Assembly: GCA_041653675.1 (NCBI GenBank)
Contig: JBAZEY010000001.1
Location: 64,098 to 128,097, forward strand
DNA: 64,000 nt
DNA from: Patescibacteria group bacterium
Lineage (GTDB): Bacteria > Patescibacteriota > Patescibacteriia > XYB2-FULL-38-15
Direction: 5' to 3'
The notes under the pieces were generated by a model. It saw nothing but the letters and a program-made list of their open reading frames with translations. It did not search any database and had not been told where the DNA came from. The position numbers and the translations under genes were made by a program. This document shows positions 30,899-61,493 of the stretch, in pieces. How positions within the stretch are numbered: the stretch's first letter is position 1; every line of letters begins with the position of its first letter.

Positions 30899-30969
30899 GG
30901 GGGTGTAGTTCAGTGGTAGAACACTGGTCTCCAAAACCAGGGATGAGGGTCCGATTCCTTCCGCCCCCG
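30899..30969 (+). tRNA. tRNA-Trp (anticodon CCA)
   Basis: Acceptor GGGGGTG/CGCCCCC (one G-U). Anticodon loop CTCCAAA. T-arm GAGGG-TCCGATT-CCTTC with an unusual C55. No encoded CCA. Confidence 0.7.
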
Positions 30970-31097
30970 CTTGGCCAAAGTTACCGTCCGTGACGGTTAT
31001 TTTGGCCAATGAGGTCGGAGTTGGAGAGAAGCCGCGCCCCGTAAGTCCGTTGCGGCCGTTTCTGCACCGAGGAGCCTCCGATTCCTTCCGCCCCCGT
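30950..31097 (+). repeat. 20-nt direct repeat of the tRNA-Trp 3' end (TCCGATTCCTTCCGCCCCCG at 30950-30969 and 31078-31097) flanking a ~108-bp hairpin-containing spacer
   Basis: Exact duplication read from the sequence. Spacer has an imperfect palindrome GGCCAAAGTTACCGTC...GACGGTTATTTTGGCC. Confidence 0.6.
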
Positions 31098-31140
31098 GGA
31101 AAATACTGATCTTAGTAGAAAAATAATTTAACTTAAAAAT

Positions 31141-31629
31141 ATGAACAACGAAAATAAAGAATGTTGCCCAAAATTTAATCCGGAAAAATGGAACGAAAAA
31201 ACGTATACCTGGGATAACAAGCCGTTTATAAAAGAAACTATTCCGACGTTTCTTCACATGCCGCTTCCCTCAATGATTGGTAAAAAAGTTACTAAAATGT
31301 GCAAGATGATGGAAGATTCGAAAAAGGCAGAAGCTAACGGTGAGGATGTTTTATTATTGTTCCACGATCCCAGCGCTTTTAAATCGGAAATATTTTTATC
31401 GGTTACCGGTCCGGTGGAAAATGCGAATAATGTGAATCTTTCCGGCACATTTGTTGCTAAAGTTTTTTCCGGCCCGTATAATGCCATTCCAAAATTTATA
31501 AAACAAATTGATGAATATTTGGCGGCGCAAGGAAAGAAAGCTAAGGATTATTATGTTCATTACGCCTACTGCCCCAAGTGCGCGAAAAAATACGGCGATA
31601 ACTATATGATTTTATTCGCCCAGATTTAA
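31141..31629 (+). CDS. hypothetical Cys-containing protein
   Basis: ORF. Pairs CCPKF and CPKCAKKYG suggest metal binding. Confidence 0.4.
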   Translation: MNNENKECCPKFNPEKWNEKTYTWDNKPFIKETIPTFLHMPLPSMIGKKVTKMCKMMEDSKKAEANGEDVLLLFHDPSAFKSEIFLSVTGPVENANNVNLSGTFVAKVFSGPYNAIPKFIKQIDEYLAAQGKKAKDYYVHYAYCPKCAKKYGDNYMILFAQI

Positions 31630-31683
31630 ATTTCCGCCCCCGCCTTGACCGAAACCGCCGCTTTGCGGAGTTAACGTAAATTT

Positions 31684-32790
31684 ATGAAAAAGGCAATTCT
31701 TTACAATGTTATCGGAGTGCTCGCGGTCTTAGCCATAATAATTTTTAAGATATCAATGATCTGGGTAATTCTGGGAGTGTTGGCACTTTTTATTTTTATA
31801 ATTTTTAATCCATTCAGACTTTCCGTTGAGGAGATTCCTAAAGGATTTGCTGAGAAAAAATTTAATACAGGAAAAGTAATCTTAAACTATATTGAAGGCC
31901 CGGATAACGGGCCTCCGCTATTGTTCATCCCGGGGCAGACGGAATTTTGGCAGGGATATAAATTGGTAATTCCGTATTTCGAAAAAAAATATCATGTTTT
32001 TGTCGTTGATGTCAGGGGACACGGAAAATCAACGCATACTCCTGGAGAATATTCATATAACATCATCGGCGAGGATTTCAAAGAATTTTTGAAAAATGTC
32101 GTTAGGAAACCCGCGATTGTATCCGGGCTTTCTTCAGGAGCAATTCTTTCGCTTTGGCTGGCGGCCAATGCGCCCGAACACGTTTCCGCGGCAATCAGCG
32201 AAGACCCGCCGCTTTTTTCTTCCATGTATCCAAGAATCAAGGAAGAAAAATACATGTATCACATTTTTAAAACAATGATAGATACTCTTGAACCGGAAAG
32301 AGATATAAAAAATTATTTTTTATTGCAGGGAATTCCTCATCCTAAAGGCAGAAAAGAACTTTTGCTGATTCCTTCTTGGATAGCCAATTTTATCACCGGA
32401 CTTTTTTATCTCAATAAAAAATTTCGTCCCAAAAAACAATATGACGTGCCCATGGCTCCTTATAGCGGACGAGCGGGTTTCAAGTTTTTGAGCGAATACG
32501 ATGTTGATTTTTCCAAGGCAACAATTGACGGAAGGTTAACCGAAGGATTTGATCCGGAAGAAACATTGAAAAAAATAAAATGCCCAGTTTTGTTAATCCA
32601 GGCAAAGTGCACACGAGATGAAAATTGGGGAATTATCGGAGCGCTGGAAGATGAAGATGTTCAAAAAATCCTCCCGATTGTAAAAAATTTAAAACATGTG
32701 CATGTTGATTCTTTCCACGATGTTCATTTGTCAAAACCAAAGATATTTATCAAAGTGGTTAATGATTATTTGGAAAGTTTAAATAAATAA
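31684..32790 (+). CDS. alpha/beta-hydrolase fold protein with N-terminal TM anchor
   Basis: Nucleophile elbow GLSSGA (G-x-S-x-G), HG oxyanion motif RGHGKS, C-terminal His. Confidence 0.6.
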   Translation: MKKAILYNVIGVLAVLAIIIFKISMIWVILGVLALFIFIIFNPFRLSVEEIPKGFAEKKFNTGKVILNYIEGPDNGPPLLFIPGQTEFWQGYKLVIPYFEKKYHVFVVDVRGHGKSTHTPGEYSYNIIGEDFKEFLKNVVRKPAIVSGLSSGAILSLWLAANAPEHVSAAISEDPPLFSSMYPRIKEEKYMYHIFKTMIDTLEPERDIKNYFLLQGIPHPKGRKELLLIPSWIANFITGLFYLNKKFRPKKQYDVPMAPYSGRAGFKFLSEYDVDFSKATIDGRLTEGFDPEETLKKIKCPVLLIQAKCTRDENWGIIGALEDEDVQKILPIVKNLKHVHVDSFHDVHLSKPKIFIKVVNDYLESLNK

Positions 32791-32843
32791 TTTTCCGCCA
32801 AAGGATAAAATATGCCCTTGGCACGACTTCCGTCCCCGCCACT

Positions 32844-33377
32844 ATGCCCAAACTGTCATATCAAAATAGAAGATATACTATCACGTTGTACGACCCAGAT
32901 TGGAAGAAAAATTTTGAAAACGAGGTTAAAATAATTCAACCAATTTTTGCCGGTAAAGCATTACAGATTGAACACATTGGAAGCACTTCTGTCCCGGGTC
33001 TAGCGGGAAAACCAACAATAGATATTCTTGTTTTAGTAAACGATGTTTCTGAAATTGATGGACTAAATAAAAAAATGGAAGATATTGGCTACAAGGTGTT
33101 GGGTGAATATGTGATGCCGGGAGCTCAGCTTTTTGTAAAGGAGAAAAATGATGTTCGACTGGTAAATTTGCACGTATTCCAAAAGGATCATTCCCACGTA
33201 AAAGAAATGCTTCAGCTGCGCGACTATCTTCGCGTTCATCCAGAGGATGTGAAAGAATATAGTGATTTAAAATTTGAGTTAGCCGAAAAGTATCCAAACG
33301 ACTACGCCCAGTACCGTAAATATAAGGATGAGTATATGGAAAGGTTAAAGGATAAAGTAAGAAAAAGTTTTAGTTAA
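32844..33377 (+). CDS. GrpB-family protein (nucleotidyltransferase-fold, UPF0157)
   Basis: IEHIGSTSVPGLAGKPTIDILV motif. Confidence 0.65.
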   Translation: MPKLSYQNRRYTITLYDPDWKKNFENEVKIIQPIFAGKALQIEHIGSTSVPGLAGKPTIDILVLVNDVSEIDGLNKKMEDIGYKVLGEYVMPGAQLFVKEKNDVRLVNLHVFQKDHSHVKEMLQLRDYLRVHPEDVKEYSDLKFELAEKYPNDYAQYRKYKDEYMERLKDKVRKSFS

Positions 33378-33383
33378 ATTTTT

Positions 33384-34022
33384 ATGAAACTTCTTTTAAC
33401 TTCAGTTGGTTGGCGAAAAAATCCCGAAATAGGGAAAGAATTTTTAAAACTTGTCGGGAAAAAACCGTCGGAAGTAAAAATATTTTTAGTCGTGACTCCG
33501 AGAAAATATCTCAAAAGAAATAAATACATATTAAGATTGTTTAGGCAGTTTAAGGTGGCAAAAATTTCGGAAAAAAATGTTACGTTTTTTAAACTTGACA
33601 GAAAGGCCAAAAAGGAAGATTTAAAAAACATTGATGTTGTTTTCGTTTTTGGTGGAAACACTTTTGAGTATTTATACAGAATTAAAAAAACGGGTCTTGA
33701 TAAATTGATAAAAAGTTTTGTCAAAAGGGGCGGAGTTTACGTTGGCTTAAGCGCTGGCAGTTATGTTGCTTGTCCCACGATTGAAGCCGCCGGATGGAAA
33801 CATGCAGATACAAATTTTGTGAAGTTAAAAAATTTAAATGGTTTGAACCTAGTTCCTTTCTTGATAACAGCACATTTCAGTGAAAGATTTCGTCCTATCA
33901 TCGAAAGATCGGCTAAAAACACCAAATATGAAGTTATTGCTTTGACTGATAAGCAGGCGGTGTTAATTAAGGGAAAAAGTAGAAAAATTATTGGAAAAGG
34001 AAAAAAGAATATTCTAAACTAA
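33384..34022 (+). CDS. peptidase S51 / type-1 glutamine amidotransferase-like (PepE-like)
   Basis: VVFVFGGNTFEYLYRIKKTGLD...GGVYVGLSAGSYV (nucleophile Ser context). Confidence 0.6.
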   Translation: MKLLLTSVGWRKNPEIGKEFLKLVGKKPSEVKIFLVVTPRKYLKRNKYILRLFRQFKVAKISEKNVTFFKLDRKAKKEDLKNIDVVFVFGGNTFEYLYRIKKTGLDKLIKSFVKRGGVYVGLSAGSYVACPTIEAAGWKHADTNFVKLKNLNGLNLVPFLITAHFSERFRPIIERSAKNTKYEVIALTDKQAVLIKGKSRKIIGKGKKNILN

Positions 34023-34122
34023 AATTAATTAAGTTCTCGCCCTCGGCGGAGATTCCTTCCGTTCACGCGGAAAATTCTGATTTTAAAACCAGGGACGTGG
34101 GTTTTTAACCCCGCAATACTCT

Positions 34123-55083: not shown

Positions 55084-55157
55084 AAAATTCTGGTCGGGGT
55101 GGAGGGATTCGCACCCTCGATCTCACGGTCCCGAACCGTGCGCCTTAGACTACTGGG
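55084..55157 (-). tRNA. tRNA-Pro (anticodon CGG)
   Basis: Minus-strand cloverleaf. Acceptor CGGGGTG/CACCCCG. Anticodon loop TTCGGGA. T-arm GGGTGCGAATCCCTC. CCA encoded (to 55081). Confidence 0.8.
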
Positions 55158-55290
55158 CCACACCCCGTAGTAGAACTTCGACTTGAAATAATACTACACT
55201 ATTTTTTCAATTTTTGACTATGCACCATAGCGAATCATTGACGGATATTTTTGTTCGCCGCGAGCGAACCGTCGAAGTTTCACTACGGGG
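55153..55290. mobile_element. MITE-like element copy 1 (~138 bp; TIR CCCCGTAGTAGAACTTCGAC / GTCGAAGTTTCACTACGGGG; flanking 4-5 bp direct repeat CACA(C)) inserted at the 5' end of tRNA-Pro
   Basis: Inverted repeats and duplicated CACAC flank read from the sequence. The left TIR supplies the first 5 nt of the tRNA. Confidence 0.45.
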
Positions 55291-55428
55291 CACACCCCGT
55301 TAGAAATAAAAGACCGCAAAAGGTCTTAAAATTATTATACAAGATAATCTTTTTTTCGTAAACCCTAAAAGTTAGCCCCTTCACTAAAAGCAGAAAAAGG
55401 ATTAAAATATATATACTCAAATAATTTT

Positions 55429-58891: not shown

Positions 58892-60184
58892 ATGAAAAAA
58901 ATAGTTCAAAAAATTTTATACGTTTTAGCCCGATCAATTTTAAAAAAATATAAGCCCGAAGTTATTGGCATTACGGGCAGCATGGGCAAAACTTCTACTA
59001 AAGAGGCGATTTTTGCCGTGCTGTCTTCTAAATTCCGCGTGCGCCAGAATTTAAAAAATTATAATAATGAACTTGGCGTGCCGCTTTCTATTTTGGGAGC
59101 GGAGTCTGGGCGGAAATCCATTTTGAGATGGCTTGGGATATTTTTCCATGGCATAAAATTAATTTTATTTCGAGACGCCGAATATCCGCAGATTTTAGTT
59201 TTGGAAATGGGAGCCGATCACCCGGGTGATATAAAATATTTAACAGAGCTCGCGCCATGCAAGGTCGGTGTTGTGACAGGAATCGGTCCGGCGCATTTGG
59301 AATTTTTTGAAAGTATTGAAAAAATTATTAAAGAAAAAAGAGTAGTTGTGAGCCATCTTCGTCCGGAAGGTTTCGCAGTTTTAAATCGTGATGATGAGAA
59401 AGTTTTTGAGATGAGAGAAAAAACGCGAGGTAAAGTTTTGACTTATGGTTTTAACGCGGAGGCTGAAGTTCGGGCCGGGGAAGAGGGGATGATTGGAGAT
59501 GGTGTGGAAATTTCCGGAATGAATTTTAAATTGAGTTATGCTGGCGCGGTTGTTCCGATTTTTTTGCCCGGAGTTTTGGGGCGGCAACACATTTACGCGG
59601 CGCTTGCCGGCGCGGCCGTGGGAATTACTTATGGAATGAATCTTGTTGAAGTTGCTGAAAGTTTAAAAAGATATATAGCGCCGAAAGGCCGGATGAATTT
59701 GATCCCCGGCATCAAGAGAACTTTGATTATTGATGATACTTATAATGCTTCGCCAATTCCCGTGGAAGCGGCGCTCGGAGTTTTACAATCAATAAAACTT
59801 CCGGCGGAAGATGATAAAAAATTTGCCGTGTTGGGCGATATGTTGGAACTCGGAAGCTTCAGCGAAGAAGGGCATAAGCAAGTTGGACGGGCTGCGGCGG
59901 CGAGCGGAGTAGATTTTCTCGTGACGGTTGGCGAGCGGTCGCGCGATATAGTTCGGGCGGCAAAAGAAGCCGGAATGAGTGAAGATAAAATTTCTAATTT
60001 TCCAACACCGGAAGAAGCAGGAATTTTTGTTCAGGGAAAAATGAAACAAGGGGACATAGTTTTGATAAAAGGATCGCAGGGAATGCGGATGGAAAAAGTT
60101 GTTAAAGAACTTATGGCTGAACCCCTGCGGGCATATGAATTTTTAGTCAGGCAAGACGCGTCGTGGGCGCGTAAGAGAGAATAA
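58892..60184 (+). CDS. murF: UDP-N-acetylmuramoyl-tripeptide--D-alanyl-D-alanine ligase
   Basis: Mur ligase P-loop GITGSMGKTSTKE. Follows the PBP gene as in dcw clusters. Confidence 0.8.
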   Translation: MKKIVQKILYVLARSILKKYKPEVIGITGSMGKTSTKEAIFAVLSSKFRVRQNLKNYNNELGVPLSILGAESGRKSILRWLGIFFHGIKLILFRDAEYPQILVLEMGADHPGDIKYLTELAPCKVGVVTGIGPAHLEFFESIEKIIKEKRVVVSHLRPEGFAVLNRDDEKVFEMREKTRGKVLTYGFNAEAEVRAGEEGMIGDGVEISGMNFKLSYAGAVVPIFLPGVLGRQHIYAALAGAAVGITYGMNLVEVAESLKRYIAPKGRMNLIPGIKRTLIIDDTYNASPIPVEAALGVLQSIKLPAEDDKKFAVLGDMLELGSFSEEGHKQVGRAAAASGVDFLVTVGERSRDIVRAAKEAGMSEDKISNFPTPEEAGIFVQGKMKQGDIVLIKGSQGMRMEKVVKELMAEPLRAYEFLVRQDASWARKRE

Positions 60185-60254
60185 GTTGTGATATTTTAGA
60201 TTTAAGATTAAAGCGGGCCATGAAAGGCTCGCTTTTTGAAACCCCCATTGATGC

Positions 60255-60283
60255 TTGACAAATTCGTTATCATGGTTTATAAA
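60255..60283 (+). promoter_or_regulatory. sigma70 promoter TTGACA-17-TATAAA driving a noncoding GC-rich transcript
   Basis: Read from the sequence. Follows the murF terminator AGCGGGCC...GGCTCGCTTTTT. Confidence 0.5.
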
Positions 60284-60290
60284 TAGAGAG

Positions 60291-60446
60291 CCGCTGACAG
60301 ACCCGTGGGCGGCATGCCGGCCCGAAAGGCTCGGCGACGGAGGTTTGTTCGATGTACAAGTCAACGTCTGTCGCACAGAGATCGCGCTCTATGCGGCTAC
60401 ATGGGTCACTGGCTCTCGATCGAAACGACCGAGAGCCACTTTTTAT
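60291..60446 (+). ncRNA. candidate small RNA (~155 nt, GC-rich, own promoter and terminator; family unidentified)
   Basis: Long-range helix AGCCGC-U-GACAGAC / GTCTGTC...GCGGCT. GNRA hairpin GCCGGCCC-GAAA-GGCTCGGC. Terminator TGGCTCTCG...CGAGAGCCACTTTTT. No plausible ORF. Confidence 0.35.
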
Positions 60447-60482
60447 ACATACAGCGAGCCGCTGATTTTTTTGTCGACAATT

Positions 60483-60511
60483 TTTTCTTTTTTTGATATA
60501 CTAAAAATCAG
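60483..60511 (+). promoter_or_regulatory. promoter TCGACA-17-TATACT for tRNA-Glu
   Basis: Read from the sequence. Confidence 0.4.
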
Positions 60512-60523
60512 TTTAGAATTTGA

Positions 60524-60598
60524 GGCCTCATCGTCTAGCCTGATCTAGGACGCCTCCCTCTCACGGAGGAAACTCGGGTTTAAATCCCGATGGGGCTA
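60524..60598 (+). tRNA. tRNA-Glu (anticodon CTC)
   Basis: Acceptor GGCCTCA/TGGGGCT (two G-U). D-arm GTCT...GGAC. Anticodon loop CTCTCAC. T-arm TCGGGTTTAAATCCCGA. CCA encoded. Confidence 0.75.
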
Positions 60599-60798
60599 CC
60601 AAAATAAATTAGAAATTAAATACAAACTAGCAAAAAGAAATTACCGCGAATTTATTGCGAAGGATTTAAACCAGGGAAGGGTCGGAAACCGCTAGGTTTC
60701 CGTTCGCGGAAATATTAAAACCGCAGGGTTTTAAGGAGCGAAGCGACGTTTAATTTCCCGATGGGGCTACCAAAAATAAATTAGGAATTAAATAAAAT
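60578..60798 (+). repeat. ~46-nt direct repeat of the tRNA-Glu 3' end plus 25 nt of downstream flank (TTTAAATCCCGATGGGGCTACCAAAATAAATTAGAAATTAAATA; second copy 60753-60798) flanking a ~130-bp hairpin-rich spacer
   Basis: Near-identical copies read from the sequence (3 differences). Confidence 0.6.
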
Positions 60799-60803
60799 AG
60801 TCT

Positions 60804-61493
60804 ATGATTACAAAAATTTCCGAAATTATTTTTTTGGTAGGGTTATTGGTATTCGTGGGTGCCGGTTGCGGTAATAAAAATTCTGCTGATAACGAGGAAC
60901 CGGTAGAAAGTGATTCAGCAAGTCTTTGCGACTCGGCCAAAGAAATGAAGTCGCCAAGTGATTTTGCAAAAGAATTAAAGGAAATTTTTGAAGAGGCCGG
61001 CGGCAAGGTAAAAATAACAGACAGTACGGAACAAGATTCGGCGAATGGAGAAATGTTTACTTTTGTTTGGGAAAATACACCTACGGCCAAGGATTTGGAA
61101 GATGCTTTTAAAAAACACGGTTATAAAATAGAAGTTCCGGGTACGGCTATGGTGGTTTCAAAAAATAATATTATTTTTGAGTTCAATTTGACGGAGGGAT
61201 CTGAATGCGCACAAGTTATTGTCAAAAAAACAGAGGGGCCGTTTAATCGAGCCAGCAGGGTAACAATTAGTGAATGTGCGGAAATGAAGGCGTTAGCTCT
61301 CCATGCCGATGTAAGAAATCATGATTTAGGTACTGCTATGATTTGGGCTAAAAAATTATTCGACAGAATGGCCGTGATTGAGGCAAAATATGGCATATCG
61401 GAAAAACAACTCAAGACGATTTGTGAAGGAACAAGAGCCAAGGAATCGGGATTTGACGCCTTGGTGGATGAATGGGTGCGGTTATTGGAGTAA
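60804..61493 (+). CDS. lipoprotein, hypothetical
   Basis: Lipobox VGAGCGNK, 229 aa. No recognisable domain. Confidence 0.45.
   Translation: MITKISEIIFLVGLLVFVGAGCGNKNSADNEEPVESDSASLCDSAKEMKSPSDFAKELKEIFEEAGGKVKITDSTEQDSANGEMFTFVWENTPTAKDLEDAFKKHGYKIEVPGTAMVVSKNNIIFEFNLTEGSECAQVIVKKTEGPFNRASRVTISECAEMKALALHADVRNHDLGTAMIWAKKLFDRMAVIEAKYGISEKQLKTICEGTRAKESGFDALVDEWVRLLE

Follow-up and report, generated by a model that had tools for sequence, protein, structure and literature searches.

A dispersed family of small noncoding elements at duplicated tRNA, tmRNA, and protein-gene ends in Patescibacteria, with a target-complementary segment as a putative guide

The window, as we call the whole 64,000-nt stretch of DNA that was analyzed, belongs to a member of the Patescibacteria (CPR) that is close to Candidatus Falkowbacteria as judged by MurF and neighboring proteins. 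It contains a tRNA-Glu(CTC) gene with an encoded CCA, called both by ARAGORN and Rfam, whose 3' end occurs a second time downstream (Table 1). The two copies, GTTTAAATCCCGATGGGGCTACCAAAATAAATTAGAAATTAAATA and GTTTAATTTCCCGATGGGGCTACCAAAAATAAATTAGGAATTAAATA (60748-60794), are in direct orientation and 171 to 172 bp apart, and the repeat spans the last T-stem pair and the T-loop through CCA, and then 21 nt beyond. A repeat finder detects a 20-nt exact block common to both copies (60585-60604/60756-60775) and a further 25-nt block with 92% identity (60601-60625/60773-60797). By hand count, there are two substitutions and two one-base indels, i.e., four small differences and not the three given in the initial annotation, which had correctly recognized that the tRNA-Glu end is duplicated together with flanking sequence.

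The spacer of ~125 nt between the copies consists of an AT-rich stretch followed by a GC-richer block with two hairpins, and its GC content is above that of the surroundings, which bears out an earlier description of hairpins of the GGAAACC-GCTA-GGTTTCC type. Since no match to the 23-nt hairpin word is expected in shuffles, a chance origin of this word is excluded. The arrangement is identical, base for base, in three independent assemblies (one from ENA and two from Logan, made from different samples), and it is therefore not an assembly artifact. Sample data with this genome are available under ERZ27247358, SRR6484325, and SRR18595300. In both Logan assemblies, the contigs break within the spacer at the conserved core, as would be expected from a de Bruijn assembler at a word that is repeated in the sample. 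Between tRNA-Glu and the ORF at 60804, predictions gave no terminator, nor did they give a dedicated promoter in the linker.

Table 1. Parts of the tRNA-Glu locus and of the element next to it
Feature	Position	Strand	Remarks
Promoter-like site of tRNA-Glu, TCGACA-17-TATACT	60474-60502	+	Only such site in 60150-60900
tRNA-Glu(CTC), intact, CCA encoded; target gene	60524-60601	+	T stem/loop/stem at 60574-60590
Repeat copy 1: G53, T-loop through CCA (contiguous with the live tRNA), plus 21 nt AAATAAATTAGAAATTAAATA	60578-60622	+	
Linker, AT-rich, varying between lineages	60602-60661	+	
Target-complementary segment GGATTTAAACC	60662-60672	+	Directly 5' of the core, as in all members
Conserved core: AGGGAAGGGU, P2, GUUCGCGGAAAUA, P3, AAGGAGC	60673-60741	+	Covariance model 93.8 bits, E 1e-22
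Hairpin P2 of the core (spacer hairpin 1), CGGAAACC-GCTA-GGTTTCCG	60683-60702		Loop GCUA
Hairpin P3 of the core (spacer hairpin 2), TTAAAACC-GCAG-GGTTTTAA	60715-60734		
Variable 3' tail GGAGCGAAGCGAC	60735-60747	+	Holds GCGAAGC; longer hairpins in its place in other members
Repeat copy 2, tRNA part GTTTAATTTCCCGATGGGGCTACCA	60748-60772	+	Without the 5' strand of the T stem
Repeat copy 2, linker-like part AAAATAAATTAGGAATTAAATA	60773-60794	+	

The core of the spacer is found elsewhere. When the core word AGGGAAGGGTCGGAAACCG was scanned against a species-representative genome collection, it matched 14 contigs, 11 of which were of Patescibacteria type with the full hairpin, while the other 3 were chance matches in coding DNA of other phyla. 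An 18-mer core word matched 52 metagenome contigs, ~31 of them real. Including relatives, 45 copies were collected, 40 of them distinct and all in Patescibacteria-like contigs; the pattern is thus no coincidental rearrangement at one locus. All of these members were gathered with one exact core word (18/19 nt), and their diversity and the rules described below come from a sample that is biased accordingly. A covariance model of the 69-nt core (R1, built on alignment A2) recovers all members in the fetched loci with 44 to 97 bits, plus three divergent ones, and has a single match in the window, the next best score being 13 bits. P3 co-varies at three pairs (AU/CG/GC, 12 cells), and 0 of 500 shuffles reach its score. 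The sequence of P2 is fixed by the search word among the collected copies, and divergent copies show compensatory changes in it (CGGGGAAC/GUUCUCCG in L083 and CGGGGG/CCCCCG in L061). An apical AACC...GGTT is common to P2 and P3, and the loops of P2 are mostly GNRA on the displayed strand. Near-identical cores occur at different targets, and a single genome (L022 and L030) and a single contig (L083) each hold two copies at different targets.

Units are noncoding and ~130 to 200 nt in size (typically ~150), with no ORF inside the element. One variant of ~400 nt (L021) has a long structured insert with no convincing ORF. Rfam gave no match at E up to 10 over the element, the long variant, or the spacer at tRNA-Trp described below, and known ribozyme, intron, or guide-RNA families were discarded as candidates on this basis. 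A phage or plasmid attP origin was likewise rejected, as neither core-word scans of viral contigs nor BLAST against phage and plasmid collections produced a match. Literature searches, including with the core sequence itself, retrieved no description of the family. Membership of the tRNA-Glu element in this family and its anatomy are secure, and these noncoding insertion elements of Patescibacteria have apparently not been described so far.

In all members, the parts follow each other on one strand in the order intact gene, terminal segment, linker, target complement, core, and second copy of the terminal segment. The linker is 0 to 70 nt long, and a segment of 9 to 22 nt whose complement in the target spans the junction lies directly 5' of the core in every copy. 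From core to tail, the order is (A/G)GGGAAGGGU, P2, a short joiner, P3, and a variable tail or hairpin. The targets, which were identified by ARAGORN, Pfam, NCBIfam, or source annotation, include ten tRNA species, i.e., Glu, Pro(GGG), Pro(TGG), Met, Gln, Gly(TCC), Gly(GCC), Thr, Trp, and Lys. The initial annotation had spoken of tRNA-targeted miniature elements; the class is real at tRNA genes, but the family is also found at tmRNA, the 3' end of rpsI, and the 5' ends of lepA and gpmI. One nearly identical core thus occurs at at least 14 different targets. When the native N terminus of gpmI was sought, the closest homolog was 81% identical, and the N termini were hypervariable.

What varies with the target is the segment before the core. 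In the window, GGATTTAAACC is the exact reverse complement of 60577-60587 (GGTTTAAATCC) in the T-arm, and across the family, the 22 nt before the core hold an exact complement to sequence 30 to 106 nt upstream. Among 38 distinct elements, the exact complementary run has a median of 11 nt to the element's own target vs. 5 nt to other loci, and the longest complement is 22 nt with one mismatch (L083). Complements are also present at nonpalindromic targets (16 nt at lepA and 20 nt at rpsI). A repeat was detected in 26 elements, and in 17 of these, at tRNAs, tmRNA, rpsI, and lepA, the 3' end of the putative guide is complementary to a position 4 to 6 nt (mode 5) to the left of where the duplicated block begins. 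This offset is 8 to 11 in seven tRNA-Glu members because an AAAT/AATTT change shortens the exact block; the exceptions are gpmI (L030/L071), with -3, and two tandem cases, which are artifacts. At tRNAs and tmRNA, the block starts after GGTTC and the junction is always at T-loop 56|57, and in our own reading of the alignment, most of the non-Glu tRNA and tmRNA members have GTGA in copy 2 where the target has GTTC. The putative helix of guide and copy 2 (P1) has a conserved mismatch of 2 to 3 nt at the junction. Within the ~12-nt paired zone, a hand count gave 7 G.U-type mismatches vs. 1 to 2 of A.C type, which would indicate real pairing of the displayed strands, while a script run over all 16 positions counted 13 G.U vs. 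16 A.C, i.e., no bias.

The duplicated block, 15 to 89 nt long, always ends at or past the gene end, and the intact gene is therefore always 5' of the element. Four independent members (L049, L050, L053, and L084) have a block that stops precisely at the 3' end of the tRNA; at rpsI, the block stops at the stop codon, and at lepA, where the element is on the opposite strand, it stops at the start codon. Untranscribed or trailer flank is often taken into the block (L020, L022, and L081). Elements lie on the G-rich strand at 27 of 31 loci, but gene orientation confounds this figure, and at lepA and gpmI the element is on the C-rich strand. It is the gene end, not the replication strand, that sets the orientation of the element, and strand bias was discarded as an argument for single-strand transposition. 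At lepA and gpmI, the element is also antisense to the only promoter that is obvious, and some rpsI members have a terminator in the linker, upstream of guide and core. At rpsI, the terminal and complementary segments form a hairpin at the stop codon. Tandem units (L047 and L019) and partial second units (L029 and L026/L037, of which the latter stop after AGGGA) show that a regenerated target is reused or that units recombine.

We compared the tRNA-Glu locus across genomes whose MurF is 72 to 91% identical. Spacer and second copy are present in L007, L015/L016, L028, L036, L048, and L019/L059, of which L028, L036, L048, and L019/L059 came from later core scans. L012 to L014 and L008 are precisely empty, the tRNA being followed directly by flank and yidC. 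Filled and empty sites occur among genomes with MurF 87 to 91% identical, and the element is missing in about half of the close relatives with nothing in its place. In filled L028, copy 1 is followed by a linker resembling that of the window, and the sequence that follows copy 2 (ACTGAAAATTATTTTTTATG) is the counterpart of the flank in empty L012 (ACTAAAATAATCTTTTTATG). Linker, core, and one copy of the gene end are therefore the inserted DNA, and the insertion is precise. Other relatives carry other changes at this locus: unrelated AT-rich inserts after CCA (L018 and L010), a 123-nt inverted-repeat insert between promoter and tRNA (L009/L011), or a GIY-YIG gene with a new tRNA-Glu, the old tRNA being reduced to its first 25 nt (L017).

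Filled and empty sites also refine the notion of a site duplication that includes flank. It stands insofar as the insertion is bracketed by a duplicated target, but the 21 nt of the repeat that lie beyond the tRNA are probably something other than ordinary flank of the target. This segment appears to travel with the element because AAATAAATTAGAAATTAAA is found after copy 1 also in lineages with a different native flank (L028 vs. empty L012) and because the linker start of the window recurs after tmRNA: its first ~19 nt, which are common to the linkers of other tRNA-Glu elements, match exactly over 19 nt in the tmRNA element L031 and less exactly in L060. The 22 nt of linker start after copy 2 in the window (60773-60794), and also in L007, may be captured flank or a truncated second unit, in which case the 21-nt segment may be the start of that unit. 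The copies themselves carry further marks. Six of nine tRNA-Glu members have the AAAT>AATTT change in copy 2, among them L028 despite its different native flank, whereas copy 2 reads AATTCCCCGA at this site in L036 and AATTTCTCGA in L048 and one L019 unit. In L015, whose acceptor stem differs (GCCGCTA/TAGCGGT), copy 2 has the same variant, and its right part is of host type. The copy 2 change, the linker at tmRNA, and the host-type right part in L015 fit recombination within the shared block, by which the left copy would be made of host-left and element-right sequence and the right copy of element-left and host-right sequence.

A complement that co-varies with at least 14 unrelated targets, a fixed position of this complement on the scaffold, and a constant offset together argue for guide-directed insertion. 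We give about even chances to the interpretation that spacer and one repeat copy are a single unit of a dispersed family, inserted under the direction of a guide in a way that restores the gene end. The family and its anatomy, the co-variation of guide and target, the constant offset, the filled and empty sites, and the tandem units can be read off directly, whereas we infer that pairing directs insertion, that the pairing nucleic acid is RNA or single-stranded DNA, and that an enzyme acts on it. In such a scheme, the complementary segment would be the guide that base-pairs with a target strand, and it would fix where the duplicated block starts on the left, ~5 nt inward of the core-proximal end of the guide. 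Recombination inside the shared terminal segment would then join the unit to the site, so that a rebuilt gene stands 5' of it and a dead fragment 3' of it. A target regenerated in this manner could be reinserted into, which would yield tandem or partial second units. It speaks against this scheme that the intact left copy still matches the guide perfectly, so that there is no target immunity, and that the gpmI member departs from the 5-nt offset. Alternatively, the complementary segment could be a by-product of insertion, by copying of the target, instead of the cause of site choice.

Since the element encodes nothing, the chemistry would have to come from a trans-acting enzyme, for which a recombinase, an HUH-type single-strand transposase, or a reverse transcriptase would be candidates. 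A more specific proposal, which we hold tentatively and with somewhat more doubt than belief, is that a protein-less cassette of gene end, guide, and two-hairpin scaffold programs a trans-acting enzyme of Patescibacteria with a fixed 5-nt offset. A search for integrases and recombinases, as the initial annotation had proposed, was negative within the 64-kb window: Pfam found no recombinase, transposase, or reverse transcriptase among ~50 ORFs. All-against-all clustering of ORFs within 6 kb of elements gave only synteny-specific clusters with no recurrent partner across targets, and no free, circular, or autonomous form was found. As for the pairing nucleic acid, the similar hairpins, the boundary-defining guide, the GCGAAGC mini-hairpins, and the antisense members point to single-stranded DNA chemistry like that of IS200/IS605, while the GNRA loops and the co-orientation with highly expressed genes point to RNA. 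Terminators in some linkers and the antisense lepA and gpmI members speak against a simple read-through RNA guide.

If the site is indeed chosen by pairing, the element would amount to a very compact natural system for the programmable and scar-tolerant insertion of DNA beside essential genes, and possibly a new class of nucleic acid–guided mobile elements in which retargeting would take only a new guide and a new gene-end copy. The host phylum has tiny genomes with few recognized transposons, and the enzyme would remain to be found there. The guide model is directly testable through its rules, i.e., a guide by a fixed scaffold, a constant offset, and a carried gene-end copy. Even on a conservative reading, the family explains duplicated tRNA, tmRNA, and rpsI ends in Patescibacteria annotations and contigs that are broken at a repeated 40-nt core.

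How does the element compare to known systems? Like tRNA/tmRNA islands, CIMEs, and the att sites of T-loop-class tyrosine integrases, it shows repeats from the T-loop to the gene 3' end (direct repeats starting in the loop were found at ten tRNA species and tmRNA), a gene rebuilt by an element-borne copy, tandem accretion at a regenerated site, and targets that comprise tRNA, tmRNA, the rpsI 3' end, and 5' ends of conserved genes. Unlike them, it has a size of ~150 nt instead of kilobases and no integrase nearby, with neither an integrase gene nor a helper evident among element ORFs (there are none), the ~50 window proteins, or shared neighbor proteins. Where integrative elements have one att specificity per lineage, the same core is found here at at least 14 targets, and att sites have no core-adjacent target complement. 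Comparison with MITEs revealed no fixed terminal inverted repeats, the sole inverted pair (complement and start of copy 2) changing with the target, and a duplicated block of 15 to 89 nt that ends at or beyond the gene end instead of a short target duplication of fixed length. Group I/II introns do not fit either, as the core is 69 to 100 nt long, no model matches, and the gene is complete without splicing. The L017-type free-standing homing-endonuclease cassette (GIY-YIG plus new tRNA-Glu) resembles the element in occupying the same locus and in leaving a dead gene fragment beside a working copy, but it encodes a nuclease and replaces the whole tRNA, whereas the element encodes nothing and duplicates only the last 17 to 45 nt.

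Pairing-based systems offer different likenesses. Like IS200/IS605 elements and PATEs, the element is small with two similar hairpins (P2 and P3 share AACC..GGTT), and as in IS200/IS605, a short guide 5' of a hairpin would pair with the cleavage/target site at the left boundary, seamless excision would be possible, and GCGAAGC-type mini-hairpins, typical of single-stranded DNA, are present. P2 and P3, which co-vary, are internal and 12 nt apart, whereas IS200/IS605 hairpins are subterminal at both ends. IS608 guides are 4 nt at the hairpin foot, while those described here are 9 to 22 nt, with AGGGAAGGGU between guide and P2. IS200/IS605 elements make no duplication, carry no target copy, and have a replication-strand bias; in contrast, we found direct repeats, an orientation that follows the gene end (lepA and gpmI members being on the C-rich strand), and no TnpA in the window. 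With the bridge (seek) RNAs of IS110/IS1111, the element shares a noncoding structured RNA, here putative, that is encoded by the element and reads the target by pairing, with matches to both strands. Bridge RNAs differ in residing in 1.2- to 1.5-kb elements next to a DEDD recombinase gene, and in having two internal loops with short split guides and insertion at a 2-nt core without long duplication, whereas none of these traits is seen in the ~150-nt units, which have no ORF and show 15- to 89-nt direct repeats. With Cas9/IscB guide RNAs, finally, it shares a contiguous guide immediately 5' of a multi-hairpin scaffold of ~90 nt and an event at a constant small distance from the scaffold-proximal guide end, but it has no effector gene, array, or Rfam match, and its putative guide matches the element's own neighbor, which stays intact. 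By this comparison, the element would resemble integrative elements in gene restoration and targets and IS608/IS110/Cas9-type systems in pairing, while lacking defining traits of each.

Several other explanations have to be weighed. The units might be scars or satellites of a conventional integrase, i.e., an attP with a tRNA 3' part that was deleted to ~150 bp or is mobilized CIME-like by a helper, which we think unlikely; it is no more probable that the conserved core is the arm or accessory-site region of such an attP, with a tyrosine integrase acting in cis or in trans. Direct repeats from the T-loop to the tRNA 3' end, reportedly the classic pattern of one integrase sublocation class, would be accounted for in this way, as would the restored gene end, the target types (tRNA, tmRNA, the rpsI 3' end, and lepA are known integrase targets in other bacteria), and the 3-kb island at tRNA-Trp in the window that is bounded by a third, degenerate 3'-end copy. 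But an integrase family normally has one target, while one near-identical core is found here at at least 14, and the target-varying segment is a contiguous complement beside the core, which attP architecture does not need. Left of the junction, moreover, the sequence (GUGA etc.) is no mimic of a left half-site as would be expected in an attP-like joint, no integrase is present in or near any of the ~45 copies or in the window, and the core was absent from phage, plasmid, and viral contigs. Insertion of a retro type is an improbable alternative. The 3' target copy of a read-through transcript would anneal to a nicked strand and be reverse-transcribed into the site, and the 5' target copy would resolve the other junction by homology, comparable to R2 or to a natural prime-editing template, which again seems a slim prospect. 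A 5' complement, a scaffold, and 3' identity to the same strand formally make up such a template, the duplicated block varies in length, P2 loops are mostly GNRA on the displayed strand, and most members are co-oriented with highly transcribed genes, with no terminator between tRNA-Glu and the element. This is difficult to reconcile with lepA and gpmI members that are antisense to the gene promoter, with terminators within some linkers, with the untranscribed or trailer flank that duplicated blocks often contain (L020, L022, and L081), and with partial units that are missing their right (3') parts, since target-primed reverse transcription gives 5' truncations; no reverse transcriptase is encoded in the 64-kb window.

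A host-beneficial, cis-acting structured RNA (a 3' trailer or UTR module) could pair with the end of the neighboring transcript and act in its processing, stability, or termination, which we judge very unlikely; nor do we put much more faith in the corollary that it spread only by transformation and homologous recombination via a conserved flanking gene. The hairpin formed by the terminal and complementary segments at the rpsI stop codon, the conserved core structure with its co-variation, the tolerance of G.U-type mismatches in the paired zone (by hand count), and the retention of the element with intact hairpins in several lineages are in line with such a role. Against it, pairing with the T-arm would misfold the tRNA precursor, the same RNA logic is inapplicable to 5'-end members on the opposite strand, the dead second copy and tandem units would have no role, and about half of the close relatives lack the element and have nothing instead of it. 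A local tandem duplication or coincidental rearrangement in this genome only, for which the direct orientation of copies 171 to 172 bp apart could be quoted, has practically no chance of being correct: it is refuted by the core at ~45 other places and at least 14 targets, and the spacer shows no relation to the 170 bp that precede copy 1, which also rules out a tandem duplication of tRNA plus flank. Copy 2 was considered as a degenerate second tRNA or tmRNA as well, and this was rejected since neither ARAGORN nor Rfam calls it and it is without the 5' strand of the T stem. Guide-directed insertion remains the interpretation that we prefer.

The initial annotation had grouped the tRNA-Glu case with insertions at tRNA-Trp and tRNA-Pro in the window as one pattern. 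All three insertions are real, but they are of three different element types: the tRNA-Glu spacer alone matched the core model (93.8 bits, the next best score in the window being 13), and the covariance model, BLAST, and a complementarity search ruled out that the tRNA-Trp and tRNA-Pro insertions belong to the same family. The tRNA pattern of the window is that of several unrelated small elements using tRNA ends, and small insertions of at least four unrelated kinds have their hot spots at tRNA ends in Patescibacteria genomes. Downstream of tRNA-Trp (30899-30970) come a structured spacer of 109 nt and a repeat of the last 20 nt of the gene (31079-31098), a layout of T-loop-to-3'-end duplication as at tRNA-Glu. 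Its spacer has no T-arm complement, no core-model match, and no sequence similarity to the tRNA-Glu element, and its word found nothing in a viral scan. The first hairpin of this spacer co-varies between lineages, and the site is occupied by the element in L085 and L087 but not in L086. The UCCGUU...GCACCGAG of the spacer may resemble the tail of the SpCas9 tracrRNA, a likeness that no tool supported and that was set aside. The third, degenerate copy of the tRNA-Trp 3' end lies at 34051-34085, at the border of a 3-kb block with genes for a hydrolase, GrpB, and peptidase S51, and this block varies between relatives. At tRNA-Pro (55091-55167, minus strand), a 125-nt insert at the 5' end has terminal inverted repeats of 15 to 20 bp and a 9-bp duplication, and is MITE-like.

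The tRNA-Glu locus of relatives carries insertions other than the ~150-nt element that duplicates the tRNA 3' end in the window (Table). At the fetched locus L017, the old tRNA-Glu gene has been cut after the D-arm and only 25 nt of it are left, followed by a gene for an 83-aa GIY-YIG endonuclease and then by a complete tRNA-Glu(CTC) of slightly different sequence. This insertion is a homing-endonuclease cassette of the free-standing kind, with a tRNA of its own. The promoter-side insert shared by L009 and L011 has inverted ends (GTCATTCTGAGCAGAGCGAAGAATC ... GATCCTTCACTGCGTTCAGGATGAC), and a strain variant, L010, is without it and has an unrelated insert directly after CCA. In L059 and L019, the second tRNA-Glu(CTC) lies past yidC, ~1 kb downstream of the gene that bears the element, and is itself followed by a GC-rich structured stretch.

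Features at the tRNA genes of the window and of fetched loci
Feature	Location	Strand	Remark
Truncated tRNA-Glu, GIY-YIG gene and new tRNA-Glu	L017 4090-4500		related Falkowbacteria genome
123-nt insert	L009 4345-4470; L011 1720-1850		between promoter and tRNA-Glu
Second tRNA-Glu(CTC)	L059 2824-2897; L019 1532-1605		shorter, 74 nt
Two adjacent divergent units	L061 120-400		
Small-RNA-like gene	window 60247-60445	+	directly upstream of tRNA-Glu
MITE-like insert	window 55168-55292		at tRNA-Pro(CGG) 5' end
tRNA-Trp end with insertion	window 30950-31098		109 nt, structured, differs from tRNA-Glu element

The two neighbouring element copies in L061 differ in their complementary segments (directly 5' of the core), one of which matches the T-arm and acceptor of a tRNA that is now absent from the contig; the pair resembles an array that is decayed or nested. 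In two independent Logan assemblies, the contigs break at an identical 18-nt overlap, where L002 and L003 end and L005 and L006 start. This overlap (window 60705-60722) falls within the conserved core, and the shared break suggests that more core copies are present in these two samples.

At tRNA-Trp, the last 20 nt of the gene are duplicated by the insertion; L085 and L087 have a filled site and L086 an empty one. A degenerate third copy of the tRNA end and flank (34051-34085) forms the boundary of a 3-kb variable island (31099-34050), which is without an integrase. The T-loop of the live tRNA-Trp (30950-30956) reads TCCGATT, with C at position 55, as does that of the downstream partial copy; in L085 and L086 it is the canonical TTCGATT. 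U55 is almost universal in tRNAs. The working gene looks as if it has been converted by the dead copy.

The tRNA-Pro insert is bounded by the terminal inverted repeats GTAGTAGAACTTCGAC / GTCGAAGTTTCACTAC and by a 9-bp direct repeat, CACACCCCG, which takes in tRNA nucleotides 1-9. No further copies were found in the window or fetched loci.

The small-RNA-like gene has a strong promoter (TTGACA-17-TATAAAT), a GC-rich body of ~150 nt closed by a long helix, and, ahead of a T run, a terminator hairpin (60410-60438). Rfam returned zero matches for it. It is kept, with substitutions, in L008, L017, L048, and L059 and is missing from L007, L012, L015, and L018. In the window, the two members of an imperfect 20-nt direct repeat (60278-60297 / 60446-60465) bracket it.
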